From: Tubulanus polymorphus
Taxonomy: Eukaryota; Animalia; Nemertea
Assembly: GCF_964204645.1 (NCBI RefSeq)
Contig: NC_134025.1
Span: 558,001 to 622,000, forward strand
DNA: 64,000 nt
Reading direction: 5' to 3'
Program-made: the position numbers and the translations under genes
Notes under the pieces: model-generated
Seen by the model: only the letters and a program-made list of their open reading frames with translations
Database searches by the model: none
Told to the model about the DNA's origin: nothing
In this document: piece by piece, positions 272 to 64,000 of the stretch
How positions within the stretch are numbered: position 1 is the first letter of the stretch
Layout of the letters: each line of letters begins with the position of its first letter

Positions 272-680
272 TTACAGAGTTTCACCCCACGAGATGACTG
301 TCATTATCGTATTATAAGAGTGCAATAAACTGCCGATTTTACATTTTTTGCCGAGTTTCTTGTCTTTTTTAACGTTCTCCGAACTTTGATGAAAATGATC
401 GTGTCCTATTTCACCGTTGCCGAAGAATCCGTGTAGCGGAACGGTCGGAAAGTATTTTTTGAATAGATTAGCTTCGACATTTTGAGATCTGTAATGATGC
501 CAGCCCCGTCCAATACACGCGAACTGAAATCCTAAATTAAACGTACGCAGTTTATGAGAATCGTAAAGTTGTTTAATGCAGGTCTCCGCAGCTGCTGGTG
601 ATTTTATGGTCTCTGTTAATCTGCATGAAGACACTGACAAATGATCTCCACACAGAGCTAGACCAATACAGTAATCCTCT
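272..680 (-). CDS. FBXO22: FBXO22 exon 5 (FIST-C domain, stop codon)
   Basis: tttttcag acceptor; GFQFACIGRG...NVEANLFKKYFPTVPLHGFFGNGEIG...LLHSYNTIM matches the FBXO22 FIST-C signature (FAC.GRG, P..GFF..GEIG, LHSYT); TAA stop. Confidence 0.92.
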
Positions 681-841
681 CTGAAAAACACGAATAAAAC
701 TTCATATTATTAATGCCTGCAACCTTTAGTTAGAACCTGTAGTTCATTTTCAATTTTGAAATCTGAAGTTGTACAATCAGAAATTGGAAGAAATGAGATA
801 AAGTGTTGAATATCTGAAAGGGTGGAGAGTCCAAATTCATG

Positions 842-1032
842 AGGTGCAGGGTAGAGAGGCCGAGTTGAGGAGGAGCAGAGTAGAGAGGCCGAGTTGAAGA
901 GGTGCAGGGTAGAGAGGCCGAGTTGAGGAGGAGCAGAGTAGAGAGGCCGAGTTGAGGAGGAGCAGGGTAGAGAGGCCGAGTTGAGGAGGAGCAGGGTAGA
1001 GAGGCCGAGTTGAGGAGGAGCAGGGTAGAGAG
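842..1032. repeat. ~29-bp minisatellite in FBXO22 intron 4
   Basis: Unit gcagggtagagaggccgagttgaggagga, about 6 copies. Confidence 0.9.
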
Positions 1033-1084
1033 TGCATCAACAATTAAATAATGAAATGAAAATCAATGTTCAATGTTGACTTAC

Positions 1085-1451
1085 TCGAGACAACCGACCC
1101 ATGATAATTGATGCATCAATTCATATAACGGTTCATTCTGCAATAATATATTATCCACATAACCTCCGCTAATAACGATATCATCATAGATATTCATAAA
1201 CGTAATGATGAGATTATCAGTACGAGGATTCATTACGCCATCAACGACATAAAATATCAACAGAGCTTTAACGTTTTTATCTTTAGGAATGCCGAGATGT
1301 TCCTCGATATCGTCGCGTGTGTTTAAAACGACGTTATCTTGGTAAAGATGAATCGGATAAAATTCAACTGCGTCAGTTTTAGGAAGAAGTAGAATCGAAC
1401 CGGCGTCCGCTGACTCCATTTCAACACTTATAGAATTATCAGGAGTTGTTC
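1085..1451 (-). CDS. FBXO22: FBXO22 exon 4
   Basis: tttcag acceptor; GTTPDNSISVEMESADAGSILLLPK...IVISGGYVDN; GTAAGT donor, phase 2. Confidence 0.8.
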
Positions 1452-2253
1452 CTGAAAATACATTAATAAATAAACTGAATTCATCTCTATTTTTAGTTCT
1501 ATTTTTATCTTCAATTTGATAAAGGAGTGATTTTCAATACGTGCACGCGTGTAAGTACACTTTGTGATTTTATACTATAGATTAAGGATTAAGGGATTAT
1601 AGATTTTCCAGTACTGGATGTTTCGCTCCATCATACGGTCTGTACTGGGTATAAAAACCTGTGTGAAGCTGTTCTGAGGTCAGTCTGCTGTAGGAGCAAA
1701 TTCAACATATTTGTGAGTAATATGTAGAGTTACTTGTAAATCGTTTTTTGCTATTCAATTATTTCGGTCGATTCTTTTCTTTATCAATTGAATAATTAGT
1801 ACATATTAAGAATTAATCAATATCTTCTAAGAATCATAGTAAGCGTTTTGTTTGTTTCTCTTGTAGAAACTGTTTTAAATAAATCCGAATCCTGGCGAAA
1901 TAAATAGTTCAATTAAATGGAAGACATCGGTCTGTTTCCACCATACAGCATTCACACAATAACGCTTCTCAGATTCAACTGCTGGTAAATCATATTCATA
2001 ATTTCTCACGTTTTATATGAACCCTTCTGGGCGAGTGCTACCCGCTAACCTTTGAAAATCTCAATACAAGTTATTGGCAAATGAACTTATGAACTTAATT
2101 TTGATCAAGTTGTCCTGATGATAGCGGGATTGCTTACAACTAGCGACACCTGGTGGATCCTTGCTTACCATAAGTGGAAACCTCAATTATAGCATTCATT
2201 GCCTATTCAGCTTATCTTTAATCTACTATAAGAGTAAATGTTGATAAACTCAC

Positions 2254-2470
2254 CTATAATTCCCTCAGTTGTTAATCCCAGTAACATACACTCATCTGGT
2301 AACATAGTTTTAACGTAATCCATCACGTTCTGTTTGTATAATTTTGTCGCTCGTTGCGTCGAGTTACGACGATGATTCGGTTTAACGACACTCGACGGCA
2401 CGGCGACCGGTTTCTCGAACACCGGCGTACAACAGAAAAACATCGCTATATTAGGCTCACTCGACAGATT
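2254..2470 (-). CDS. FBXO22: FBXO22 exon 3
   Basis: tttttcag acceptor; NLSSEPNIAMFFC...LPDECMLLGLTTEGII; GTGAG donor, phase 1. Confidence 0.85.
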
Positions 2471-2724
2471 CTGAAAAATCATCGGAAAATTAGATCGAAT
2501 CAAACCAAGTGATCATCGATCTTCATCTGAAAACATTTAGAAATTCCCTGAAGAAAAGTAACTGTAAACAGTACCTGAGAATTACTGAGAAACTGAAGTC
2601 TTTGTATTTGTGACTATCATTTGTATATCTACGACTTACAAATTTCACTTTGTAAATTGAATAATTGGAAATCTCTGGGGAACTCACGGGTACACTCCTC
2701 TACTGACTGTGAATTAATCCTCAC

Positions 2725-2863
2725 CTGAACGGCCTTCGAGAATTGTTCATGAAACAACTTTCCAAAATCCTCCAAATGATAAGGAATTGTCGACATAAAC
2801 CAAGATGGCTGCTTTCGATGTTTCTTGATTCTTTTTACTTGTTCATTCCAACTCTTACAAACC
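2725..2863 (-). CDS. FBXO22: FBXO22 exon 2
   Basis: AG acceptor; VCKSWNEQVKRIKKHRKQPSWF...SKAVQ completes the F-box; GTGAG donor, phase 0. Confidence 0.85.
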
Positions 2864-3164
2864 CTTAAATAAAAGAAGAAATGTTTAACTACACATGGAT
2901 ACCAGAATAGGTCATTGACGACGCTTGTTTTATTCACTATCAAATTGTGACGAGCTCCTTTGCTCTTCGTATTTAGGGGGCCTAATTGCACCACCCCCCT
3001 TGTGGGGTATCCCGTTATTTCCCAAAGGAGGGGACAGTAACAATGACTGGTATTCATTCAGACTAGCCCTCTACTATTTTACCCGTCCTGGCCCTCCGCT
3101 CCCCAACCCGCCCGGGACTTTAAGCGCATTTTCCTTTTCATTGAGAGTTTTACCCCCATTTTAC

Positions 3165-3298
3165 CTAGCGCATGTATTCAAACTCTTCATCGGTAATTTT
3201 TTAAGAACATATTCGCTGATTTCGGGTAAATCGACGAGCAAATTGAACGAATAATTTCTCGATTCGGCTTCATCCGAATCATTCGCTACGTCCGCCAT
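3165..3298 (-). CDS. FBXO22: F-box only protein 22, exon 1 (start codon, first half of F-box)
   Basis: ATG at 3298 gives MADVANDSDEAESRNYSFNLLVDLPEISEYVLKKLPMKSLNTCAR (F-box pattern LPE..YVL..LP...L..CARVCKSW). GT donor at 3164, phase 2. Full join 3298-3165, 2863-2725, 2470-2254, 1451-1085, 680-272 = 1266 nt = 421 aa with consistent phases. Confidence 0.85.
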
Positions 3299-4893
3299 TT
3301 TGTTTGATCACATGACCATCAATTTTATTTTCAAGTTCGAGTCCCATGATTTTCAGAAACCTAACTATTATTTGCAAATGATCTTTCCTTCGACGGCTAC
3401 GCAGGCAGCAGTTAGCGGCAAATTTCATAATTTTCTTTATAAGCTTTTGCAATATACTTATTGTTTCACTGTAAATCAATATGATTGTGAATATGAATGA
3501 ACATGATCCGAAAACTTTTACGTTAAAAAGAACTTATGAACTCGAGCATTACGGGATATATAGATGCAATAAGTCAATACTACGTAAATATACTATCTAG
3601 TCGCGATCCCGACATAGGGACCACAAATTTCTCGTATTGAAATTCTGATATTTTTATTACCACTGGTATATGATCACTGTAGAAGTCATTATCGAAATGA
3701 AATGTCGATCGTGTTCCACGGTTTTGATTTCCCCCTTTCAAGTCATCATTTTTATTTTTAAGATGAATACCCTCCGCCATCATTCAACCGAGACCAAATC
3801 GAATGGTCCAGATGTTGAGTCTGGATCCGAATACAGATCCATCAAAAACTAAATGTGATTCTCAAAAAAGTTTCTTTATTATTAAACAAGAAGCGAAATT
3901 CTAATATGGACTTTCGTAAATTTACACGATGATGAACCGTTTAATCCAGTATCAATATTAAAGGAAAAAAAAATTTTTTCAAATTATGAGTGGTAAAAAA
4001 TGATATTTTTTTGGCAGAATTTCAGAGGATCGGTGCTCCAAGTAATTAAAACAGCCTAACATGTCTCCCCTCAATTGAATCAAGGAGTTTTTAATGAAAA
4101 AAAAGCGAGATTCTATTGACGGGATTCTGCGGTAACAGCATGGATGATGGGCACGAATACATGGTAGTGGGTTTCCCCCCAATGACTCATATAGACCGCT
4201 TTCCTCGTGCATGATGTGAGTTAGTTATCTCGGGGTCCATGAACTTACGTAGTTGTGACTAAATAAACTAATTTCATTAGTAAATGTTTACGCGGATTCT
4301 ATGTTATCGAAGACCTGTGTTGGTGTGAATCTTTAACTGAAGAGCTATCGGTCGGTATAATTTATAAATTATTCTAGAATTTAAGAAAAAACAGGCGGCG
4401 GCTAATAAATACGGAGGTAGCTGTTAGTGTTGGGAATCAAGTAATTTATTTCATGGCCTTATTAAAGTTCCTCCACTATATTGTTCAGCTGACTACTGGC
4501 GCGTATTCAACCCGGCAGTGGAACCTTTCATAATGTTAACCCATTCAACAATAGAGACACAATTGCGGTCTTTCAGAGTTGTTCTTATCTTTCGCATGCG
4601 CTATTGAATACGTAACCGGCTGACCACGGTGTACACAAGCATAGACCATTCACCTCTGCACACTCACACTGTGAACATGCTACCGTGGATTCTCCTCCTG
4701 GCGATTTTCGCTGCGCTCCCGCTCCTGCTCCTGTTCCTGCTTCCTGAGGAACGACGTCTTTATGTTTTATGTGTTACTGTTCGTCTCTGTGCTGTCCTGT
4801 ACTGTTCCGTGTTAATTAATCCGTTCTATTTTTCAGCAATTAACCAGTTTTATTTTTCAGGGCCGATTTCTCTGTCGAATTTCAACGTTTGCT

Positions 4894-5129
4894 GGAACAA
4901 AACTAATGTCCGAAAGCGTCGGCTCTCCTTCGCCGGTCACGTGTCGAGGATGTCAGACAAAGAGTCGGTCAGGAAATTCTGCCCTCTACACGCCCTCATA
5001 CGGAACACGAAAACCAGGATGACGATACCTCACTGCCCCCACCTATCTACAAAGTGTGCTGAGTGATGTCAATGACGGGCATATCTGTGGGATTGCGCGG
5101 GATACAAATGGAGCGGTTATACTGGATTG
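4894..5129 (+). mobile_element. Degenerate 3' fragment of an RTE-clade non-LTR retrotransposon; left arm of inverted repeat
   Basis: Translates as VRKRRLSFAGHVSRM.D.E..R followed by (frameshifted) ALYTPSYGTRKPG, resembling the RTE C-terminal motif R.RRL.[FW].GH..RM...G.R..G. Confidence 0.65.
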
Positions 5130-5430
5130 TCACGCTACTAGCATTCATTGTGTCCTTGTGACCGCCCGGATGAGGGATGATTCTACTGTCACGCTCTTTG
5201 TTTCTGGTATTCTGAGTCGGCTGAGGGATGATTCTACTGTCACGCTCTTTGATTTCTAGTTTGAGTGCTAGTTTTCATTGTGTCCTTGTGACAACCTCGG
5301 TCAGTGGATGAAGTCTCTCGTCGGCTTGTGAGTGCTAGTTTCATTGTGTCCTTGTGACAACCTCGGTCAGTGGATGAAGTCTCTTGTCACGCTTTTGGGT
5401 GCTAGTTGAGATCCTGAATCTCAACCCGGT

Positions 5431-5669
5431 CAAGCTGGTTGTACTGCGCTATTTGTGTTTCGTGCAATTTTACAGGTTTGTCAGTTACTGACGTCGCCCA
5501 GTACATCCTGCAGTTAGATGGGGAATGTGAGGCGTTGTCATTCTGGTTTTCGCGTTCTGTGTGAGGGCGTGTAGAGGGCAGTATATTCCTGGCTGGCTCA
5601 TTGTCTGGTGTTCTCGGCACGTGACCGGCGACGGAGAGCTGTAAAGCTTTCGGACATTAGTTTTGTTCC
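5431..5669 (-). mobile_element. Second, inverted copy of the same RTE fragment; right arm
   Basis: Reverse complement aligns end to end with 4894-5129 (about 75-80% identity); reads QLSVAGHVPRTPDNEPARN..ALYTPSHRTRKP. Confidence 0.65.
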
Positions 5670-6930
5670 GTACCAGGTTTTCATCGCTCTTCTCTTTTTT
5701 TTCATTTCAGGACTCCCAAGATGAAGAAGAAGATGCTGAAGGCGACTACAGAAGATGGCGAAAAAGGAACACTGAACTCAGCAATATTGAAAGTTAAGTT
5801 GATACACATGTAAATTACGATGTATGATACAGAAAGGATTGTGTAACTACAGAATATCGTTCTTTTACTCATTTCAGGTTAATCCAGAACGGCCCATTTA
5901 AAATCTGCCCACCAGAAGTGCCCACAAAAGACTCCACGTTGAATGAACCAAACGTCGAAAGTCCTGCTGCAACCAAACCTGGCAGTCTCATCCTGCATGG
6001 CAACAGGAATGCATACATACATAAAGCTAAGTTGATTTTTCATATCTGGGGTAGAATGCATAGACACTGGAGAGGATAGAGACGCTGGTCGAGCTCACCA
6101 TCTCCGCACTACTTTATTGAAGCTCTGTGGCCGGTAGTAAATTGAAATATAGCTAGGGCAATGATTGCTTGAATATTTACAATATTAGATGAAATGATTG
6201 AGTGAGGTCCCTTGAATATTCTTTGGTCTGATAATCAAAATGTAGATTGGTCAGTTATTGATTAAAAGATTTTTTAAGTATGTACAATTAAGGTAAATTC
6301 AATATCTTATAAAATTTTCCGAATGTACCGTAGATATTTCAGGCCTCATATGACTATTGTTTAACTGACAATCAAGATATAGATAGGACAATTTACTAAT
6401 TAACCAATCGCTTAGATATTAGCAATCATTCAATATCTTATAATGTTTGACGAGAAACTCTTCTAGTGTAGATATTTTTAGGGCCCCGTTTACATTAAGG
6501 CAGGCTTTACCTGTAAAGATATATATCAATCAAATTTATCGTCAGTTAATAGTTTTTTTTACAAATAGTATATTGATACATTTATAAACATTCAGGCACT
6601 TTACAGTATATATTATATGCTGCTTTACCCATTGCATTAATGAATTTCTGGGGGAAAGATGTATAAAATAGTGTCTAGGGCTCTATCGAGATCTGGTGTA
6701 ATATATATATGGGGAAATCTATGGACTGCGGGTTTTTCAGAAACCTTGATTAGGTCTCACCACTTTGATAAATATAGAATAAAACAAAGCTTTAATTGAT
6801 TCAAATCATTCCACAGAGCCATACTTGTGCCTTGTTTTGTGCTATGATAATTATTTAACTGAAAATTATCATGTATATATAGCTAGGACAAATTGCTCAT
6901 TAACCAATGGCTTAGATCCACAATTAAGTT

Positions 6931-7900
6931 GAATTCAATATTTCATGTAAGATCAAAAACTATTTATATGTAATACAGGTCCATAATATAAATGTTGTTA
7001 AACTGAAAATTTAAATATAGCTGATATATGTATGAGCACATCTGAATCAGTCTCATCGACTGATCAGTATTTACATCTCCAACTGCCGTGCTTACGGCGA
7101 CTGGTCATGGTCTTCAATGTTGCCAAAATTTACCAAAACTTAACTGATTCATCTAAAAGCCATACTGTGTGTCAAGTTACGCATAATAGATATTGTTTAA
7201 CTGACAATTAGAATCAAAGGTGAATAACACATTAATATATTACTATAAGATATATACGATTAAGGTAACTTCAATATGTTATTTGAAATAGTTTTTAATT
7301 CAGGTCCATGGACATTTAAAGCACATTTATTTATCTGTATCTAAGTATTGTGTCTTCATACAGCTGTATTAGTTTTGATACATATTGCCAAAATCATTTC
7401 ACGCAGATTTACTTCCGATCGAAGGGAGATAAAACAAATCTGTACGTGCACAAATACATTCCTGAATTTGGAAGGGGGAATATTTCAATTTCACTGTGTA
7501 TGTCGGATTGAGAGCCTTATTCTGACAGGATATCCTTAACTTAGGTCTTATTCCTCTTGCTAATAGCTCTCTTTTACTAACCCCTCTCCTTCAAACTATT
7601 TTCTAGCATCATGTCTTGCACCGCACCAGGGAGGTCCGGTCATAACAAGGTCTTTCGATCCTTATACACAGTGTACTACTATAAAAGTGAAATAAAGATT
7701 ATATAGCAATTCGGCTATAAGGGAATTTCTAATTTACCACTAAAAATGTGCTTTTATCTTAATTTCTGATGAATTCAAATAGTGATGGATTCACCACATC
7801 TGAAATTCTACTCATGTAGATTTTCAGGCTCCATGTTCAACTGACTATCAAAATGTAGCTAGTATGATTACTAATTAACGGATTGCTTAGATATCTAGAA
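6931..7900 (+). repeat. ~1-kb direct duplication, copy 1 (copy 2 at 12192-13200)
   Basis: Colinear similarity; core 7347-7677 differs from 12641-12971 at only 2 positions. Confidence 0.92.
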
Positions 7901-8128
7901 GATTTATTAAAATCATGATTACAAGATCATTGTATATATTAGGAGCAATATTTAGAATCACTGAAATGGATTAGAATACCAATTACTGGATACAGATGTC
8001 ACCATCTGTGGTACTAGAAAACATCTCTTAAAGTTTATTAATTGACGATGAAGTTAATTTGATAATACGAATCTGGTTTAGCCGACAATCGAAATGTATA
8101 TAGGGCAATATTACTAACTGTATGATGG

Positions 8129-8224
8129 GCCTGGGTTTCAATAAAAGTCTACTAGCGCCTGGGTTTGAATAAAAGCCTACTGGTGCCTGGGTTTCAATTA
8201 AAGCCTACTGGCGCCTGGGTTTCA
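8129..8224 (+). repeat. 28-bp tandem repeat (3.4 copies) with hairpin and AATAAA/ATTAAA
   Basis: Units gcctgggtttcaataaaagtctactagc start at 8129, 8157, 8185 and 8213. Confidence 0.85.
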
Positions 8225-9199
8225 TAGAGAAAGAGACACATCAAGAATTAACAAAGGTAGAAGAGAAAAACAGTAGAAAAACAATTTGATAAGATTTATT
8301 ATGCATTACTAAATATGTTGTAACTCTGGTATTCCTGAAGATGACTATAGATGCTTTAATCGAATTGCTGTTAAACTATAATAATCAACCATTGCTTAGA
8401 TATCTAGAATATAGATGAATAACAATATGAGTTGAATTTCATATAAATATCATTTAATAATTGACTATTATCAAAATCTACGTATCGGTCCACATTGACG
8501 ATCCTATATTTGAATTGACACGTTAATTATGATCAGTGATATTCGAAAGGATTTTCTGCTCACAAGATTCTGCTCTTTTTTCCAGCTAAACTACTAATCG
8601 TCTAGTCATAGAATGTACAAAATGATCTTCAACCTTGTAATATAGATATCAAAAATCTCGATGTATTAAAATAGGCAGAAAAAAAGTTAACCCAAATCAG
8701 TCGCTTTCTGACTGGTTAGAAGATTGTTTGAGTGAACTGGAACAAAATTTCGCAATTGCTTGGATTTAAAGAAAGAAAATTATGTAAACTTGATCACACA
8801 ACTATATCTGTACTTTGATTTGGAAAAAAAAATTAGACAAAATTATCTTCAACCTTGTAAACTTTCGGACTACTTATACGAAAAAAATGACCAAATATTA
8901 AAAAATTATCGAAAAAAAATTATGTAAAATCGACTGACGATCACACAACTATATCTGTACTTCGATTTCCGATTTTGAAAAAAAAAAACGCCTGTTTCGC
9001 TCCCGGCAGGTGTGGTGGGTTTGTAAGGGACACCAACTCAAATCAACCAAACGAAATCTACCAATCGCCCGCAGAAGAATCAAACCAATTCAGATGATCA
9101 TCACCAATACTCAACCAAACGAAATCTACCAATCGCCCGCAGAAAAATCCAACCAACTCAGAAGATTGTCACCGATACTCAACCAATCAATCTTGACAT

Positions 9200-11030
9200 G
9201 TAAGTTTATTTTTATGGAAATTATTATGATTAATTCTAAATGAAATATTTTGTCATTACAGGATATCTTTTATTACAGCTGAATTTCAACTATAAGAAAA
9301 AACCCAGCTTGAGATCAACAACTCGTCCAAAATCGACCAACTGGAACAGTGCACAGATGAGGCCAACTAACTAACCAACTAATAGGATAATCGCCGATAA
9401 CCAAGCAATCATAAAAGGTAACATGATATACATGGAATTATTACGATTTATTCTTATTGAAATATTTTGTCATTACAGGATATCTTCTTTTAATCATTGC
9501 AGCTAAATTTCATTTATCAGAAAAACCCAGCTTGAGATCAACTACTCGTCATCAAAATCAACCAACTGGAACAGCGCACAGATGAGGCCAATTAGAATTC
9601 AACTCATTTACCAACCAACTTAGATGATTCACGCCGATTACGAACCAAGCAATCATAAAAGGTAACTTGATATACATGAAATTGCTACGATTTATTCTAA
9701 TTGAAATATTTTGTCATTACAGGATATCTTCTTTTAATCATTGCAGCTAAATTTCAACTATCAGAAAAAACCCAGCTTGAGATCAACTACTCATCCAAAA
9801 TCTACCAACTGGAACAGTGCACAGATGACGTCAACTAACTAACCAACTAGTAGGATAATCGCCGATGACCAAGCAATCATAAAAGGTAACTTGATATACA
9901 TGAAATTGCTACGATTTATTCTTATTGAAATATTTTGTCATTACAGGATATCTTCTTTTAGTCATTACAGCTAAATTTCAACTATCAGAAAAAACCCAGC
10001 TTGAGATCAACTACTCGTCCAAAATCAACCAACTGGAACAGTGCACAGATGAGGCCAATTAGAATTCAACTCATTTACCAACAAACTTGGATGATCCACG
10101 CCGATTACGAACCAAACAATTTTAAAAGGTAACTTGATATACATGAAATTATTATGATTAATTCTTATTGAAATATTTTGTCATTACAGGATATCTTCTT
10201 TTAATCATTGCAGCTAAATTTCAATTATGAGAAAAACCCAGCTTGAGATCAACTACTCGTCCAAAATCGACCAACTGGAACAACGCACAGATGAGGCCAA
10301 CTATCTAACCAACTCATAGGATAATCGCCGATAACCAAGCAATCATAAAAGGTAATTTGATATACATGAAATTATTTCGATAAATTCTAAATGAAATATT
10401 TTTTCATTACAGGATATCTTCTTTTAATCATTGCAGCTAAATTTCAACTAAGAGAAAAAACCCAGCTTGAGATCAACTACTCGTCCAAAATCGACCAAAT
10501 GGAACAGTGCACAGATGAGGCCAACTAATAAGATAATCGCCGATAATGACCCAAACATAAAAGGTAACTTGATATATGTGGAATTATTTCGATAAATTCT
10601 AAATGAAATATTTTGTGTCATTACAGGATATCTTTGTTTGCTCATTTCAGCTAAATCCTATCCATATGAAACTGCCCAGCTTTAAATCAACGACTCATCA
10701 AATATCTACAGATAAGCCCAGCCCACTGAACAATCCAAGCTTGAATCAAATACATCATCAATTGCATCAACCAATCGTTCTAACCGATACTGAACCCAGC
10801 AAACTTGAAATGTAAGTCGATTTTGTATGGAAATTATTATGATAAATTCTGAAAGAAATATTTTGTTATTACAGGATATCTTCTTTTAATCATTGCAGCT
10901 GAATTTCAACTATAAGAAAAAGCCCAGCTTGAGATCAACTACTCGTCCAAAATCTACAAACTGGAACGGTGCACAGAAAAGACCAGAACTGAACCCAGCA
11001 TTCTTTAAAGTAAGTTGATATACATGAAAT
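9200..11030 (+). repeat. Tandem array of 8 intron+exon units (~215-250 bp)
   Basis: Each unit is GTAA...61-63 nt...cattacAG followed by a ~135-185-nt A/C-rich exon-like segment; units 1-5 alternate between types A and B. Confidence 0.9.
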
Positions 11031-12191
11031 TACCTGTATATAGAAATTTCAGTCCTCATATGAATATCATTTCATAAGTGGCTATCATCAAAATCTATTT
11101 ACCGGTCCACATGGCTGAACTTTTATCTTCACTAGTCTTAAACAGTGATGAACTAGTCCTACTACTGCAATTAATTTTTTGGGGTTTAAATCAGCAATTG
11201 ACTTCAATGAATTTTACTTTGTGAAAAACAGGGTGCCTTGTAATTTGAAATGACACGTAAATTATGATAAATCTGTCTAAATTGTTTTGCTTTCTTCACT
11301 TTGTTTCAGCCAAACTACATCTCGGAAAAATTGGCCTGAAGAAGACACTCACAAGTAGATGAATACTGATCGACCCATTTGCTGATGAAAACTGCAGAAG
11401 CCCAGATGAAAAGTTGAGGAACCAGCAACGGATTAATCACCCAATGATGGATTCTTCTACAATCGGTGGTTGATTTCTATAAAACATTAAATATCAGGAG
11501 CAGCAGAGACAATAGTGAATCTTATAAACACTGATTCAAGCGACAAAGCTAATGGATTATCTCATAAACACCGATTCACGTTAAACACTGTTTTAAAAGC
11601 AGCAAAGACAATAGTGTATCTTATTAGGAGCAGCATAGATAATAGTGCATGTTATAAACACTGAGATCCAGGAGCGGCGAAGACAATAGTGGATTTCTGT
11701 AGTAAAGTATTGATTTTTTTGCTTATCACCTTTTTCAAACCAGTCTGATGGAAAATATAGTGTTTTCGAGGAAACTATTTGATAATGTTTATGCAATGTG
11801 AGAGTCTAATAAAAGCTAAGCTCCATTAATGCACGATTTTGGTCTTCGATCCTTGGTCGATAGATAAGACAAGTTAGGTTTGTCACTAGGGGTAAATGGT
11901 CGTGTTGAGTGCCTAGTTTGGACTCGTAGGTCTGTTGAGTTTAACTCCTAAACTGAGATATAGTTTCAACATGAATTGTGAGTTTAATCTTCCAACTTAC
12001 CATAGTTAAACATAGTCAACTGTGGCTATTTGTCCGTGTAGATATCACATAGTTAGGAAACATAGAACATAACGTTAGACCAGTGTTGATGTACAAATAT
12101 TAACTATTTGCTGAATTGTAGATGTACAAATTTGATGGCATTGATATTTCCGAAGGTAACAAATTTGAAAAATTTGAAACGAATCGTAGAT

Positions 12192-13200
12192 GAATTCAAT
12201 ATTTCTAAGATCAAAAACTATTTATACGGTATGTAATACAGGTCCATAATATAAATGTCGTTAAACTGAAAATTTAAATATAGCTGATATATGTATGAGC
12301 ACATCTGAATCAGTCTCATCGACTGATCAGTATTTACATCTCCAACTGCCGTGCTTACGGCGACTGGTCATGGTCTTCAATATTGCCAAAATTTACCAAA
12401 ACCTGATTCAAATAATATCTAAAGCCATACTGTGTGCCAAGTTACGCATAATAGATATTGTTTAACTAACAATTAGAATCTAAGATGAATAACTCATTAA
12501 TGTATTACTATAAGATATATACGATTAAGGTAAATTCAATATGTTATGTAAAACAATTTTTATTAGGGTCCATGGACATTTAAAATGTAGCTGATACATG
12601 TGTATCTGAGCACATTTATTTATCTGTATCTAGTGAACCTATTGTGTCTTCATACAGCTGTATTAGTTTTGATACATATTGCCAAAATCATTTCGCGCAG
12701 ATTTACTTCCGATCGAAGGGAGATAAAACAAATCTGTACGTGCACAAATACATTCCTGAATTTGGAAGGGGGAATATTTCAATTTCACTGTGTATGTCAG
12801 ATTGAGAGCCTTATTCTGACAGGATATCCTTAACTTAGGTCTTATTCCTCTTGCTAATAGCTCTCTTTTACTAACCCCTCTCCTTCAAACTATTTTCTAG
12901 CATCATGTCTTGCACCGCACCAGGGAGGTCCGGTCATAACAAGGTCTTTCGATCCTTATACACAGTGTACTGTAAAAGGGAAATAAAGATTATATAGCAA
13001 TTCGGCTATAAGGGAATTTCTAATTTACCACTAAAAATGTGCTTTTATCTTAATTTCTGATGAATTCAAATAGTGATGAATTCACCACATCTGAAATTCT
13101 ACTCATGTAGATTTTCAGGCTCCATATAGATATTTTTCAACTGACAATTAAAATATAGCTAGTATGATTACTAATTAATGGTTCGCTTAGATACCTAGAA
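12192..13200 (+). repeat. ~1-kb direct duplication, copy 2
   Basis: Matches 6931-7900. Confidence 0.92.
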
Positions 13201-15248
13201 TTTAATTAAAATCAATTCAATATAATGAATATAAGTGAAACTTAATTCAAAATAGTGCAGTGGATGAGACTACTGTATCCCGCAATCTCATCTGCGTCTA
13301 ACTGGGCCACATGTGTGTGTGGGATCTGTTGAATCAGTTAGGTTTTGGGGAATTCTGGATTCGTCAAACCGGTATCAAAAGCTCTGATGCAAAATTAGCA
13401 GTTTGAATAATGCTTTTATGTTGAACTGTTTTTTTTTTTCAAATACAGTTCACCCATTGGTTAACGAAGAACTGATAACTCCTTGAATACAAAGCAAAGT
13501 TTGCAAAATTTCAGTTTTCTTGTAAAAATAATGTAATGAAATGAAATTAGAGATTGATTATTTGAATTAATTTGTGGTTTTATGTCAAGCTTTAATGTTT
13601 ATATGCTGCAGTTTTTTGTATAAACAGAATATCTTAAATCTCTTACATTGTCATTTGAATAGTTGATATGATTGAATGCTTCATATTTCATGAAATAATC
13701 AGGTGTCACTTATGCCCGGTGACATCTTGAAATGTCAAATTAATAGTCTTAGCCTTTCAGACTAGTCCTAATTGTCGGTGTTTTATGGATCAAAGTTTAC
13801 AATTCTTTGTGTAATTTTGTTATTTTCCTATTGATTCAAATTGTATGAATCAGTTGCAGTTGAAATTTGAATAAAAACCTTGAAATACTTTGCATGGTAT
13901 GTGATATTAAAAGCTAGTAATTTTATTATTGAATAATCTAAGTCATTATTATAAGGCTAAAAATGATACCTTGTTTTTCCTGATCGGCCGGGTCATTTCA
14001 TAAATCAATGAAATTTGTAATCAGTTAATTTCTATCTGCTGGGTCTGTTATGGTTAGCTTGATCATGATCTTAAAGTAATACCCTGGTAGATAGGCTGCT
14101 GGCCGGGTCAAATTTTAAAGAGTAAAAATGTAAATCAGATTGATTCATTAAATCTTACGCTTTCCAGAGTATTTGGCCAGGTTTATCTCTGGTTTTAGTG
14201 CGGGAAGCCATGGACTCGAAAGTTCATGGTTGTGGGCCATAGACATTTCTGATTTAGAGTCTATGGTTGGACCATGGATGTATAAACTCCAGTTTATAGT
14301 TTATACGTCCATGGTTGGACTGTTTTTGAAATACAGTCCATGTGTTTGAGGAGCTTACGTTATTATTCCTCGAGCACAAACCTGGCATTTTCTATAATTG
14401 TTACACTGTATGAGAATAAATATGATTGAAATTCTTTATCTGTTTAGCTACTCTGTCTGAACTTTGTTAGTTCACCAGTCAGTGGTTTTTTGTTATCTTG
14501 CAATCCACTTCTTTTTTCAACCCAATATTCCCACCAACATTGTGCGGAGACGAGGATGTCCGGAAAACATGATAATCGAATATTGGCAATACAGCTTACC
14601 ACTTCAACCCGGACACACTAACACTAGTTGATCGGTTATGAGCGAGTGTTGAGCTGCCGAAGAGTAATTACGAAATTAGCAATCTTTATGATTGTCACTA
14701 TAGCCATCAGGGGCGGATCCAGACCGTATTGCCCAATACATTGTACGGTATAATATTTAAGTAATTCGGCAATATTTTGTGACGGCATATATATTTCACC
14801 TCCCGCTAATTTGATATTTCCACTGATGATCGGTTTAATTTTTATATACAGAAGCAGAGTCCTGAATAGTAAACTTTGCCTTTAAAAGTGGCACCCAGTT
14901 TCCTTCTTTTAGTGTTAACATTACATGAGATATGTGTTTCTCTTGTAAAAATCATTGTTTTTATTTTCTTCATGCTTTCGGTAAATGTAGCCGATGACCT
15001 CCTGATCGTCTCTAAGGTTCGAACCCAGTAATTACTGATACTGATTCAGAGTGGCCCTGATGCTGAATGGAGGATGTACCGGGATGTCCCGGGTTCGAAC
15101 CAAGTTATATTACTGATGCTGATTCAGAGTGGTCCTGATGCTGAATAGAGGATGTACAGGGTTGTCCCAAGTTCGAACCCAGTTATATTACTGATGCTGA
15201 TTCAGAGTGGTCCTGATGCTGAATAAAGGATGTACAGGGGTGTCCTGG

Positions 15249-15424
15249 CCGTACGGTGCTGCCGCTATGCTCATCGTTAGCGGGATTTTCATACACTAAC
15301 GTTAGTCAACTCTGGCAATCGACGTGCTGTCCAGTTATACTCCGTGACCTTAGCTTGCCAGAGTTGACTAACGTTAGTGTATAAAAATACCGCTAACGAT
15401 GAGCATAGAGGCAGCACCGTACGG
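15249..15424. mobile_element. ~175-bp hairpin MITE-like element with ~70-bp TIRs; copies also at 15735-15910, 16221-16386, 18573-18748, 19210-19385
   Basis: ccgtacggtgctgccgctatgctcatcgttagcgg...ctggcaa pairs with ttgccag...ccgctaacgatgagcatagaggcagcaccgtacgg; amplified as part of a ~480-bp higher-order unit. Confidence 0.75.
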
Positions 15425-16923
15425 TAAAATGTTGATATCTTAACAAAAGTAATTACTGATAACTGATTCAGAGCGGCCGTACTGATGCTGAATTGAGGGT
15501 GTACAGGGATGTCCCGGGTTAGAACCCAGTAATTACTGATACTGATTCAGAGTGGTCCTGAATACTGAATTGAGGATGTACAGGGGTGTCCTGGGTAGAA
15601 CCCAGTAATTACTGATACTGATTCAGAGTGGTCCTGATGCTGAATAGAGGATGTACAGGGGTGTCCCGGGTACAAACCCATGAGTGGTCCAAGTTGTCCT
15701 GATGCTGAATAAAGGATGTACAGGGGTGTCCTGACCGTACGGTGCTGCCGCTATGCTCATCGTTAGCGGGATTTTCATACACTAACTAAAGTCAACCCTG
15801 GCAATCGACGTGCTGTCCAGTTATACTCCGTGACCTTAGCTTGCCAGAGTTGACTAACGTTAGTGTATAAAAATCCCGCTAACGATGAGCATAGAGGCAG
15901 CACCGTACGGTAAAATGTTGAAATCTTAACAAAAGTAATTACTGATAACTGATTCAGAGCGGCCGTACTGATGCTGAATAGACGATGTATGGGGATGTCC
16001 CGGGTTCGAACCCAGTAATTACTGATACTGATTCAGAGTGGTCCTGAATACTGAATTGAGGATGTACAGGGATGCCCTGGGTAGAACCCAGCAATTACTG
16101 ATACTGATTCAGAGTGGTCCTGATGCTGAATAGAGGATGTACAGGGGTGTCCCGGGTACAAACCCATGAGTGGTCCAAGTTGTCCTGATGCTGAATAAAG
16201 GATGATCAGGGGTGTCCTGGCCGTACGGTGCTGCCGCTATGTTCATCGTTAGCGGGATTTTCATACACTAACTCTGGCAATCGATGTGCTGTCCAGTTAT
16301 ACTCCGTGACCTTAGCTTGCCAGAGTTGACTAACGTTAGTGTATAAAAATCCCGCTAACGATGAGCATAGAGGCAGCACCGTACGGTAAAATGTTGATAT
16401 CTTAACAAAAGTAATTACTGATAACTGATTCAGAGCGGCCGTACTGATGCTGAATAGAGGATGTATGGGGATGTCCCGGGTTCGAACCCAGTAATTACTG
16501 ATACTGATTCAGAGTGGCCCTGATGCTGAATGGAGGATGTACAGGGGTGTCCCGGGTTCAAACCCAGAAATTACTGATACTGATTCAGAGTGGTACTGAT
16601 GCTGAATAGAGGATGTACAGGGGTATCCCGGGTTCAAACCCAGAAATTACTGATACTGATTCAGAGTGGTACTGATGCTGAATAGAGGATTTACGGGGTA
16701 TCCTGGGTTCAAACCCATCAATTGCTGTGATTCAGAGTGGTACTGATGGATAAAGGATGAACAGGGATGTCCTGGGTTAGAACCCAGTAATTACTGATAC
16801 TGATTCAGAGTGGTCCTGATGCTGTTTAGAGGATGTACAGGGATGTCCTGGGTTAGAACCCAGTAATTACTGATACTGATTCTGAGTGGTCCTGATACTG
16901 TATAGAAGATGTACAGAGGTGTC

Positions 16924-18258
16924 CGACGAGAACATCTTACGTGATCGCCATCTATTGGAATTTGGCTGAACTGACTAAATAGCTCTTACTGGTCTCACTG
17001 ACTCTTCTTTAATCTGTTAAAATCACACTCGCCATCTGGTGGATATAACCATCATTAGACTGTAGTAGCGTAGAAGTCCATCAGATGGCGAGTGTGATTT
17101 TAACAGATAAGCAAAAAAATTTCTCTATGATAAAGCTATGAAAGCTATGTATTCTATTATTCAAAAGGGCAGACGTTTGAAACTTCCAGTAGATGTAATG
17201 TTTAAACTATTTGACATGTGCGTCGCTCCTATCGCGTTGTACGGTTGCGAAATCTGGGGATATGAAAACCTTGACTTATTAGAAAACCTCCACTGTTTAT
17301 TTTGTAAAATTATCATGAAAGTTACAAAATATTCCCATAACCTTCAAGTATTAGCGGAGTTAGGACGTTATCCTATGTATATAAGCGTAAAGCGTAGAAT
17401 GATTAATTTTTGGGTCAAAACGATAGAGTGCAAACAAAGTAAACTTAGTTCAATTCTCTATAAGATATCTTATAATTTATATCTGAATGATAGGTTTAAG
17501 AGCCCCTGGCTGTTATTTATTAAGAAGACTTTTGATGACTGTGGCCTTTCGTATATATGGACACAACAATCTATGGTAAACTCTAGGACTTCTCCAAAAC
17601 AATTACACCGTTTACTCCGTGATCAGCATGTGCAAGAGACAGAATTTAGGCTAAATAATAACCCGTTATACATTAATTTTAGACAATATAAGAAGGATAT
17701 CAAATTTGAAAACTATATAAATCGGCTTGATGATGACTTAGTGACCAGCTTATTCCAGTTCAGGATTGGGTCTTATCTCCTACCTGTAAATAAATTGTCA
17801 AATCTCCATCTACCGAGAACCGATAGATTATGCCCCACCTGTAACGTTTTAGGCGACGAACTACATTTCATTTTTGACTGTAAATTACTTACCGTATTCC
17901 GTGAAAGCTACCTAAATTCAAATACCTTTCGGAATCTTGATGTTTTAAAAAATCCAACTTTTAAACTTGCTAAATTTATCAAATTAGGTCTGGATGTATA
18001 TAGATCCCTCCGGTAGTGTGTGTAAATAGTATGTTGTATATAACGTTTGTTATGTTTCAAAGTGCTTTTATCTACTGTTTTTGTAAATAATTGTAAATAC
18101 TGTTTCTTTTCCTCCATATACCATGGAAATGGTTGGAGTGTAATAAATATTCGTATTCGTATTCGATAAAAGAAGAGTTAGTGAGACAAGTAAGAGCTAT
18201 TTAATCAGTTCAGCCAAATTCCAATAGATGGCGATCACGTTAGATGTTCTCGTCGGAT
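16924..18258. mobile_element. Central foldback/MITE-like element (~120-bp arms) split by a LINE insertion
   Basis: 16924-17043 is the reverse complement of 17077-17110 plus 18170-18258; contains two cgccatct(a/g)ntgg motifs. Confidence 0.65.
17111..18165 (+). mobile_element. 5'-truncated non-LTR retrotransposon (RTEX/RTE-group-like), C-terminal ORF fragment 17138-18016
   Basis: Uninterrupted 292-aa frame with LYGCEIWG, AELGRYP, SPWL..IK..FD.CGLSYIW, FRIGS..LPV and the zinc-knuckle-like RLCPTCNVLGDELHFIFDC. 3' AATAAA, (TATTCG)3 tail, and GATAA target-site duplication at 17106-17110 / 18165-18169. Clade assignment is from motif recall only. Confidence 0.88.
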
Positions 18259-19620
18259 ACCCCTGTACATCCTCTATTCAGGATCAGTACCACTCTGAAT
18301 CAGTATCAGTAATTTCTGGGTTTGAACCCGGGACACCCCTGTACATCCTCTATTCAGCATCAGGACCACTCTGAATCAGTATCAGTAATTACTTGATTCG
18401 AACCCGGGACACCCCGGTACATCCTCCATTCAGCATCAGGGCCACTCTGAATCAGTATCAGTAATTACTGGGTTCGAACCCGGGACATCCCCATACATCC
18501 TCTATTCAGCATCAGTACGGCCGCTCTGAATCAGTTATCAGTAATTACTTTTGTTAAGATTTCAACATTTTACCGTACGGTGCTGCCTCTATGCTCATCG
18601 TTAGCGGGATTTTTATACACTAACGTTAGTCAACTCTGGCAAGCTAAGGTCACGGAGTATAACTGGACAGCACGTTGATTGCCAGGGTTGACTTTAGTTA
18701 GTGTATGAAAATCCCGCTAACGATGAGCATAGCGGCAGCACCGTACGGTCAGGACACCCCTGTACATCCTTTATTCAGCATCAGGACAACTTGGACCACT
18801 CATGGGTTTGTACCCGGGACACCCCTGTACATCCTCTATTCAGCATCAGGACCACTCTGAATCAGTATCAGTAATTGCTGGGTTCTACCCAGGGCATCCC
18901 TGTACATCCTCGATTCAGTATTCAGGACCACTCTGAATCAGTATCAGTAATTACTGGGTTCTAACCCGGGACATCCCCGTACATCGTCTATTCAGCATCA
19001 GGACCTCTCTGAATCAGTGTCAGTAATTACTGGATTCTACCCATGACATCCCTGTACATCCTCAATTCAGCATCAGGACCTCTCTGAATCAGTATCAGTA
19101 ATTACTGGGTTCTAACACGGGACATCCCCGTACATCCTCTATTCAGCATCAGTACGGCCGCTCTGAATCAGTTATCAGTAATTACTTTTGTTAAGATATC
19201 AACATTTTACCGTACGGTGCTGCCTCTATGCTCATCGTTAGCGGTATTTTTATACACTAACGTTAGTCAACTCTGGCAAGCTAAGGTCACACAGTATAAC
19301 TGGACAGCACGTCGATTGCCAGGGTTGACTTTAGTTAGTGTATGAAAATACCGCTAACGATGAGCATAGCGGCAGCACCGTACGGTCAGGACACCCCTGT
19401 ACATCCTTTATTCAGCATCAGGACAACTTGAACCACTCATGGGTTTGTACCCGGGACACCCCTGTACATCCTCTATTCAGCATCAGGCCCACTCTCAAAC
19501 ATTGTCAGTAATTACTAGATTCGAAACCAGGACACCTGTGTTTAGGGTCAAACTCACATCTATAGGTCATTAATCAAACAATGAAAACATGTGAATATGT
19601 GATTATACAACACAGACAGG

Positions 19621-26255: not shown

Positions 26256-26452
26256 TAGTTGTCGAATAAACACTATAATCCGTGTAAACTGTAGATAAAT
26301 GAAGAAATCCCACACTTCGAATTTGAAATTAAGTTTTTCTGGTCATTCCACCTGATGATGGCTGTTAGTCAACAGCCGAAACGTTGTGGTTTCGTAATAA
26401 TAAATTTGATCATATAATTTCAAATTCGAAGTGTGGGATTTCTTCATTTATT
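26256..26452 (+). mobile_element. Penelope-type mini-element containing a hammerhead ribozyme
   Basis: 12-bp TSD tacatatagaat (26244-26255 / 26453-26464); ~37-bp internal inverted repeat ataaatgaagaaatcccacacttcgaatttgaaatta; related copy at 45198-45466. Confidence 0.75.
26348..26389 (+). ncRNA. Minimal type I hammerhead ribozyme motif
   Basis: ccac-CUGAUGA-u-ggcuguu(aguc)aacagcc-GAAA-cg-UU-gugg: helix I ccac/gugg, 7-bp helix II, palindromic AACGUU helix III. Confidence 0.8.
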
Positions 26453-26607
26453 TACATATAGAATATAAACTATACATATATATATATATATATCACACGT
26501 GTTTGTGAAGTTGTGTTTAATTGAATGTAGATCTGAGGAGTCAAATATAACTCAAATATTGTAAACTATGAGTTAGTAAATTATTTCACATAGGTAATAG
26601 TAAGCTC

Positions 26608-45197: not shown

Positions 45198-45466
45198 AAG
45201 ATAAATGAAGAAATCCCACACTTCGAATTTAAAATTGTAAGATAGAATTTATTATTTTGAAACCACAACGTTTCGGCTGTTGACTGACAGCCATCATCAG
45301 GTGGTATGATGATGGCTGTTGACTGACAGCCATCATCAGGTGGAATGATGATGGCTGTTGACCAGCAGCCATCATCAGGTGGAATGATGATGGCTGTTGA
45401 CCAGCAGCCATCATCAGGAGGGAATTCTTCATTTATCTACAGTATACACGGATTATTTGACGACTA
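45198..45466 (-). mobile_element. Second Penelope-type hammerhead mini-element (opposite orientation)
   Basis: 10-bp TSD actatacaag (45188-45197 / 45467-45476); homologous to 26256-26452; carries three extra tandem hairpin derivatives of the ribozyme. Confidence 0.75.
45263..45304 (-). ncRNA. Minimal type I hammerhead ribozyme motif
   Basis: Minus strand reads ccac-CUGAUGA-u-ggcugu(caguca)acagcc-GAAA-cg-UU-gugg. Confidence 0.78.
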
Positions 45467-62280: not shown

Positions 62281-62988
62281 TTTTATTATAAGGGCTTTTG
62301 CCGATTCCTTCATCAGAGGTCGATAATATTTTCCTGTTCTTAAATGATTAACTCGTTTCATTTGCTGAGGAGTTTATCTAGAATCAATCCATCCATGTTT
62401 GTATGGATTTATTTGTATCAAAGAGTTTCTGTTTATTTTCATTAACCTCAATACTACTCGAAGGGTAAGTATTTGTACTTATCACTTATCAGCAAGGTAA
62501 GTTACATAGCTGAATAGTTGGCATAGATAAAACATACTCCGTTGTTGTGTGAATAAACAGCTATAGTAATTAGTATCAATACCCAGATCTAATTACATCA
62601 ATGATGCACTGAGTAAAACACATCAAACATCTTAAAAACAATGACAGTAAAACTTGCTTTTATTAAGAGGATCATTTTAAAAGTACGAATTGGAATGGAA
62701 ATAAATATTGGGACAATAAAAATAGAGATGACTTCAGTAATGTGACGAATTATCTAAATGATGACTTCACTTAGTTTTAACTGAATTATACAAATACAAA
62801 TTGGAACTCAAAACTAAGAGACTTAATGAGTGTTGACCTACAACAAATTTGCTTTTGATTACAATGAAACAATTTGTGTGAAAATGTCCACACAAATTGT
62901 TACAATGTAAATCAAAAGCTTATATATTTTGTGTTAAATTCACTGATTTCTCCTGGAGCGCGTGTCGCCTGTGTTTTATATTACTTAC

Positions 62989-63477
62989 AGGGTTAGTATA
63001 AGGTAGTGTAGCCAGATCAACAAACTCCGAATTCAACTTATCACGAATCATTGTCAATAACTGAACCTTTGGATACAAAACTAACGCCTTTTTCCCTTCT
63101 TCGTATTCGTCTAATTTCTTCTTAGCGAAAGCTCCAGCCGAGAATGTAGCTATCCTTTCATGAACGGGAGTTTGAAAATAAGACGTCGTTTGAGAAGTGA
63201 CTTCGTCGTAATCGTCGTAATTTTTCGGTTCTTCCAAAGTAAAATAAACAGCAGTTCCTCCTAATTCTCTGAGATTTTTAACGGCTTGTAAAATATCCTT
63301 TCTATGTTTCGGAATAACCACACCGATCGCGTCCAGATCCGGCTGTCCGATCTGTTTACAAATCTCCAGGTCATCGTAACCGTTATCCAAGAAAGCTTGC
63401 GTATATTTGGCTAAAGTAAGAGAGCGTAGCCACTCTTCCACGATATTATCAGCCATGTCTAAAAGACACGGACTCAT
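62989..63477 (-). CDS. SAMD5: SAMD5-like first coding exon (N-terminal SAM) of the SAMD5/SASH1 gene
   Basis: NIVEEWLRSL.L..YTQAFLDNGYDDLEICKQIG.PDLDAIGV...HR..IL.AV..LRE....VYFTLE is the SAMD5 SAM signature; ends MIRDKL....DL...PYTNP at a GTAAGT donor. An acceptor at 63483 implies an upstream UTR exon. Start may be at 63456. Confidence 0.92.
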
Positions 63478-64000
63478 CCGATCTGTAAAATTAACACTTT
63501 ACATCGTAGATATTATACAAATAAACTATCGGCGAAAGTTAGAAACTTGTACGCCGCGGAAAAACGATGATATGAAGGTTTATTTGACAGCAACATGACA
63601 ATCGCGACTGTCTAAAACATCCATGATGTTTAGACTGAATTAGTGCTGCGCCCTATCGGCGTTTATCAGAACACAAATACAAACCTGTGTAGAGGGCGAC
63701 ACCTCCTGGTGGTAAAATACAAATCTCATTCATTGCGGGCTAGCAATCATCCGACGATAGAACCATCAGCTCGTGATGCCAAATGAATCATGCTCGTCTA
63801 TTCACAATACCGATATACTGATTTAAGACCCACCCATGAATCAACACAGCTGTCGTCGGGATCCTCAATTTGCTGTGGTCAATCAACGCTTTGTAACAGA
63901 TGGGATGTTAGTAACACTTTCACCTCCTCCTTCCACAAAGAAAATACTGACTCATTTTTCCATCCATCAATTTTTAATAAAAATATCAATATAATGCTAT

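Follow-up and report, generated by a model that had tools for sequence, protein, structure and literature searches.

Within a 64,000-nucleotide stretch of the genome of the palaeonemertean Tubulanus polymorphus, hereafter called the window, lie two inverted copies of one decayed fragment, and the differences between them lean strongly towards those that still pair in RNA of the forward strand. What produced this lean, and whether it points to a folded RNA, is the question that the locus raises. The fold-back is real and strand-biased, and it belongs to a family of more than 100 copies. The explanation that we favour, tentatively, is that it forms a putative RNA duplex on the plus strand, whose pairing selection maintains and which acts in cis on its own transcript.

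The inverted repeat and its one-sided wobble bias

The left arm of the fold-back (positions 4894-5129, plus strand) is a decayed coding fragment in sense orientation, and the right arm (5431-5669, plus strand) is an inverted copy of it, about 77% identical by alignment. Both were recovered by repeat finding and alignment as the preliminary description had drawn them, the former method yielding the paired pieces 4894-4917 and 5646-5669 (100% identical), 4922-4975 and 5586-5639 (81%), and 4976-5117 and 5443-5584 (74%). RTE-clade LINEs are typified by an endonuclease and a reverse transcriptase domain and by a 3' tail of short repeats. The translations of the arms resemble the C-terminal stretch that follows the reverse transcriptase in these non-LTR retrotransposons, and the arms are likely a decayed retrotransposon tail. 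In comparison with RTE-clade elements, the arm is only a 236-nt decayed fragment and the repeated unit around it is not a LINE copy. With the short, decayed queries that the arms provide, none of 11 candidates showed similarity to RTE ORF proteins at E<=1, a further LINE protein search returned one chance repeat protein, and Pfam gave no hit. No other copy of the 236-nt fragment was found within the window.

When 4894-5129 was aligned globally with the reverse-complemented 5431-5669, 236 columns were paired, comprising 181 Watson-Crick pairs, 32 G:U pairs, 9 A:C mismatches and 14 transversions. The manual estimate of about 32 G:U against about 9 A:C transitions was thereby reproduced, and the bias persisted in a binomial test (p=4.3e-4), a value that is post hoc because the repeat was chosen for its bias, and that carries the caveat that the mismatches are partly adjacent (5089-5091). 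Under four schemes of local scoring the ratio was 35:10, 28:9, 30:9 and 31:10 (p from 2e-4 to 3e-3). Two left-arm letters, 5026 and 5027, are private to the window copy, with some 95% of the reads of X8 (genomic DNA) differing from it; once the family letters replace them, the ratio becomes 31:8.

The split is 12:1 in the outer stem, which adjoins the splice-like signals described below, and 20:8 in the inner stem. Mismatches that cannot pair occupy 5 of 127 columns in the outer stem and 18 of 109 in the inner stem (p=0.0016), a five-fold lower odds in the outer part. In CpG-type contexts, 12 TpG fall in G:U pairs and a single CpA in an A:C mismatch (p=0.003), where symmetric CpG decay would give 1:1. 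This 12:1 split and the scarcity of mismatches in the outer stem fit selection for pairing on the plus strand. A G>A variant at 5653, present in 608 of 1334 X8 reads (46%), makes an A:C of one pair in the outer stem, provided that no second change compensates for it.

A control inverted repeat in the same window (15-17 kb against 18.2-19.5 kb) gave G:U to A:C ratios of 17:19, 14:11, 10:8 and 7:4, all near 1:1, although these rows overlap and are therefore not independent; the hairpin differs from the first of them with p=0.009 (Fisher test, 32:9 vs 17:19). The ratio of A:C to transversions, 9:14 in the hairpin, is not lower than the 19:36 and 11:26 of the control. As A:C is not scarce by this measure, the pattern can be read as an excess of G:U rather than a loss of A:C. 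Base composition is unskewed in the introns of the unit at 6060-9000 (G+T 0.496, p=0.66), which gives no sign of a general transcription-linked asymmetry there, and likewise at 3900-4630 (p=0.27); short stretches near the hairpin are rich in G+T, namely 4770-4893 (0.63) and the spacer (0.62). The bias is specific to the 4894-5669 repeat and to the plus strand, on which the splice-like signals also lie, and a regional strand skew does not explain it. The control derives from a foldback-like element (15016-19539) with long inverted arms of 76-nt subrepeats and imperfect palindromes of about 178 nt, which encloses a LINE-like frame of 301 codons at 17111-18016. Imperfect palindromes at 45287-45416 and 26290-26456 have a slight plus-strand G:U lean of 7:2, 6:3 and 5:2, counts that were halved for double-counted columns and are too few to test.

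Folded as RNA, the plus strand of 4880-5690 has a predicted energy of -449.6 kcal/mol, which exceeds the stability of the minus strand (-335.6) by 114 kcal/mol; with DNA parameters the gap is much smaller (-195 vs -171 kcal/mol). The predicted stem contains uninterrupted helices of 24, 31, 28, 19 and 29 bp. Between the arms, the spacer (5130-5430, plus strand) consists of tandem 52- and 66-nt units, which read joints show to be gained and lost at low frequency among copies. On the plus strand only, an inner stem is predicted to pair 5169-5260 with 5267-5388 and so extend the rod, and against shuffled sequences the spacer has a fold z of -2.06 on the plus strand and +0.91 on the minus strand. 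Since the units derive from a common ancestor that was itself self-complementary, pairing in register between spacer repeats was not scored as compensatory. The spacer was also considered as a hammerhead-like structure and rejected as such, as by eye the third stem is absent. Rfam, searched over 3000-15000, matched nothing in the hairpin, neither a retrozyme nor another known RNA family; its sole match in that range was a palindromic stretch at 14253-14329 resembling mir-490 (E 0.57, sub-threshold), probably by chance.

A high-copy multi-exon unit

The repeated unit that carries the hairpin is multi-exon and runs on the plus strand; close to its 5' end, two splice-acceptor-like sites enclose the hairpin. 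Sequence signals mark two tandem acceptor-like sites upstream (4814-4860, plus strand; AG at 4836 and 4860), the second of them 33 nt from the left arm. Downstream (5690-5798, plus strand), the next acceptor-like site, at 5710, lies 41 nt beyond the right arm and is followed by an acidic exon-like piece (5711-5792) and a donor-like site at 5793. A frame of 129 codons (4677-5066, plus strand), open from an ATG at 4677, extends into the left arm, and its translation starts out hydrophobic in the manner of a signal peptide; Pfam gave only sub-threshold hits to it, and no exon-1 donor is evident in the window copy. Further along the unit (9262-11009, plus strand), repeats and sequence signals delimit eight exon-like units that are rich in Ser, Thr, Asn and Lys and have consensus-like splice sites. 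Several of these carry stops or frameshifts, and their donor region is similar to 5771-5885. An Atlas search with the exon at 10651-10809 returned one weak, unnamed cluster (0.77), and the product of the unit received no name from Pfam or Atlas. By eye, 4393-4450 holds a TATA-like box, then an initiator-like word, with a donor-like site at 4441, and a second, weak TATA-like word lies near 4604; either TATA-like word could mark the start of the unit. At the far end of the window, a SAMD5-like exon is found at 62920-63498 (minus strand).

The preliminary description had taken the hairpin for a single domesticated locus, which read depth does not bear out. X8 genomic DNA covers 4526-5850 at a depth of 1060-1400, against 5.9-10.8 (mean 8.5) on and beside FBXO22, a single-copy neighbour (272-3057, minus strand) that served as the depth control; its exon at 275-706 (minus strand) is 99% identical to Tubulanus polymorphus FBXO22. 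This baseline consists of 8 repeat-free bins, 2 further bins that touch an intronic repeat having been excluded, and the depth ratio corresponds to about 124-164 copies. Depth is maximal at this hairpin-bearing core (4430-5840), present at some 125-165 copies per single-copy equivalent; the wider unit (3830-9030, with an approximate left edge and a right edge beyond 9030) reaches about 17-68 copies at >=80% identity outside the core. The genome size of 358 Mb given in a passage of PMC8468679 implies a lower single-copy depth and hence up to about 260 hairpin copies. Reads at least 95% identical to the window make up 50% over 4300-6300 and 15% elsewhere in 1081-9030, the latter figure obtained by subtraction and for a region that includes unrelated repeats.

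The window contains one hairpin copy, adjoining the single-copy FBXO22, which suggests that the copies are dispersed. A search between 3700-4000 and 11000-15020 revealed neither terminal repeats nor a 3' end of Helitron-like type beyond chance expectation, and no target-site duplication flanks the arms. A MITE or foldback DNA transposon, recognizable by terminal inverted repeats and a target-site duplication, was set aside, the arms being internal to a larger repeat. Pattern scans gave 4 chance matches in metagenomes, all in GC-rich DNA with dissimilar flanks, and 0 in viral contigs. Several other features of the region were recorded. A direct duplication of about 1 kb (6927-7915 and 12188-13214, 90.7% identity) lies within or after the repeated unit, and short repeats of very high copy number occur at 2139-2188 (X8 bin depth about 970) and 8914-8991 (about 2770), the first of them inside an FBXO22 intron, where reads loop back as on a tandem unit. 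Among reads on 1081-9030, the run X10, which bears the same species label, had no real match to FBXO22; that label covers two species according to a passage of PMC8468679. None of the 10 runs listed is recorded as RNA or as small RNA, and X7, X9 and X10 contain hardly any of the sequence words looked for, which counts neither for nor against the hairpin.

Possible editing, small RNAs and known fold-back systems

X5 and X6, which come from one sample and may be DNA or RNA, carry G instead of A, at full contig depth, in four places of the right arm (5467, 5491, 5512 and 5516). In X8 genomic DNA, G occurs at these positions in 5/1181, 8/1286, 150/1149 and 1/1153 reads, below 1% at three of them, and all four lie in A:U pairs of the stem. 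There are at least four such sites among the variants listed (40 of 236 and 40 of 260), in a comparison between different samples. The A at 5491 has a 5' G, a neighbour disfavoured by ADAR. Outside the stem, the letters private to X5 among the variants listed are 5946 A>G and 5974 C>G. In X5 the proportion of A>G is elevated across 4300-6300 (19/72 vs 21/189, p=0.004) and shows no excess over 1081-9030 (17/111 vs 24/211, p=0.38). X5 lacks a contig on 4300-4567, a stretch that is covered in each of X1, X2 and X8; the X5 and X6 contigs traverse intron-like DNA unspliced, no GT..AG joint was found among the joints listed (15 of 33 and 15 of 198), and X5 also contains the intronic repeat 2139-2188. 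On balance we lean towards X5 and X6 being RNA; they may instead be low-coverage DNA of another population, and the A-to-G letters would then be alleles. ADAR editing of the putative stem RNA at the four sites is accordingly a lead, not proof.

Of the systems with which the hairpin can be compared, it may work like repeat-derived dsRNA, and it resembles the hpRNAs of Drosophila. In the passages of PMC10317233 that describe them, the Drosophila loci (the hp-pncr009 family and hp-CG4068) share with it a long, imperfect, one-strand fold-back, which here is predicted, as well as multiple copies and association with a gene family. Fly clusters range from 3 to 20 copies in the same passages, whereas the Tubulanus hairpin exceeds 100, and the Tubulanus arms look LINE-derived, unlike Drosophila hpRNAs. 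The G:U richness that the preliminary description had attributed to these loci was not stated in the passages of the hpRNA literature that were searched. Drosophila hpRNAs are furthermore defined by Dicer-2-dependent siRNAs of 21-22 nt. As far as the main text of a survey of 43 lophotrochozoans goes, in which Tubulanus does not appear, Dicer-2 was found in no nemertean while most nemerteans have siAGO, and the one nemertean small-RNA library, from Notospermus, lacked the siRNA (19-nt) overlap signature; its authors suggest that Dicer-1 possibly serves siAGO in nemerteans without Dicer-2 (PMC11114477). An annelid without endo-siRNAs is described in a passage of PMC8915122. Because nemerteans are reported to lack Dicer-2, a fly-style small-RNA gene is less likely here, and both Drosophila-type dicing of the hairpin and its membership of the Drosophila-type hpRNA class are doubtful.

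A second likeness is to ADAR-edited repeat dsRNAs, such as inverted SINE or CR1 3' fragments and the palindromic Harbinger repeats of Xenopus, which are likewise self-contained, repeat-derived fold-backs in many copies, with possible A-to-G letters in the stem here; in the parts of PMC5625713 that treat them they are young and near-perfect, and a wobble bias at the DNA level is not described. The Tubulanus arms, in contrast, are 23% diverged, have a one-sided bias and keep a constant position within a multi-exon unit. Splicing is steered by some inverted repeats in introns, such as inverted Alu pairs, and the likeness to these lies in the ends of the Tubulanus stem being so close to acceptor-like sites. 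Inverted Alu pairs flank an exon, whereas both Tubulanus arms lie between two acceptor-like sites, and the splicing effect is putative. In the freely readable main-text literature we found no description of the hairpin element, which does not establish its absence from print.

Origin and meaning of the bias

A lean of 32:9 towards pairs that form on the forward strand only suggests that the family is likely the source of a long RNA that folds back on itself, whose pairing is maintained and which may be edited. We propose that a single inverted duplication of a decayed LINE 3' fragment took place in the founder of a multi-exon, secreted-protein-like unit. The arms would have diverged to about 77% identity under selection that tolerated G:U and purged A:C and other breakers of plus-strand pairs, and the unit would have been amplified afterwards, so that all copies inherited one bias. 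The stem would draw the acceptor regions at 4860 and 5710 together, and this juxtaposition would set acceptor choice or retain unspliced RNA. The stem would also be an ADAR substrate, acting on its own transcript and not as a fly-type siRNA gene. We count in favour of selection the 32:9 ratio against a control near 1:1, the unskewed introns and the plus-only fold of the spacer; against a duplex acting in cis we count 5653 G>A, the local richness in G+T and the unspliced contigs of X5 and X6.

One alternative, which we regard as possible but rather unlikely, is neutral: C>T and A>G changes may have accumulated one-sidedly and locally in the founder's inverted repeat, on a plus strand exposed near a strong promoter, and the biased hairpin may then simply have been carried along when a repeated or mobile unit was amplified. 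The G+T-rich spacer and 4770-4893 would suit such a process, as would an A:C count that, relative to transversions, is not below the control, and the repeat was selected post hoc; moreover, since all copies go back to one founder, their number lends the test no independent weight before they are aligned. Local mutation of this kind sits less well with the absence of skew at 6060-9000 and 3900-4630 and with the gradient of pairing towards the outer stem, and a 3.5-fold strand asymmetry is large for one-sided mutation processes. It is very improbable that the hairpin serves as single-stranded DNA in a Helitron-like or foldback-like mobile element, with a preference for G:T wobbles on one strand. 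The high and apparently dispersed copy number beside a single-copy gene would agree with this, and the plus strand is the stabler one with DNA parameters too, but the strand gap is much smaller than for RNA, and the hairpin is internal, without target-site duplication, terminal repeats or a Helitron-like 3' end above chance.

The alternative named in the preliminary description, ADAR A-to-G hyperediting that became fixed, would require the founder transcript to be edited and returned to the DNA by reverse transcription, leaving A>G changes only. Runs of adjacent G opposite T (5089-5091, 5100-5101) do resemble editing clusters. ADAR sites across animals are depleted of upstream G in the relevant passage of PMC5625713, whereas the wobble G's have 5' neighbours like the background, since G precedes 12 of the 32 (9 if the run-internal G's were A) and 25 of 84 paired A's. 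Many copies of the unit also carry intron-like and upstream DNA, unlike a retrocopy. Six wobbles (4953, 4965, 4969, 4999, 5542 and 5558) presumably read as C>T, judged by an RTE motif. Fixed editing is therefore not favoured, and we consider its chances slight. Better placed, and next to the neutral account the main rival, though still rather unlikely, is a family of hairpin-RNA genes whose duplex is cut by Dicer-1 or enters piRNA production and is then loaded on nemertean siAGO, so that either the parent LINE or the gene family is silenced. The long imperfect stem with its predicted helices, the retention of siAGO without Dicer-2 together with the suggested role of Dicer-1 (PMC11114477), and the varying copy number of Drosophila hpRNAs in the passages of PMC10317233 all speak for it. 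Set against it are the reported lack of Dicer-2 in Nemertea and of the 19-nt overlap signature in the one library, arms that at 77% mutual identity would match an active LINE imperfectly, and the fact that no parent LINE was found.

For the preferred duplex acting in cis, as for its rivals, the family itself offers the means of decision: more than 100 natural copies of one fold-back amount to a built-in mutational scan, and once aligned they can separate selection on RNA from one-sided mutation as the source of G:U bias in long inverted repeats, which single-copy cases cannot. As to what nemertean siAGO loads without Dicer-2, no candidate substrate is more obvious than the hairpin family. That more than 100 wobble-tuned, LINE-derived hairpin RNA genes feed this orphan siAGO is unlikely; if true, a lineage regarded as having lost endo-siRNAs would possess an endogenous silencing pathway based on long hairpins.
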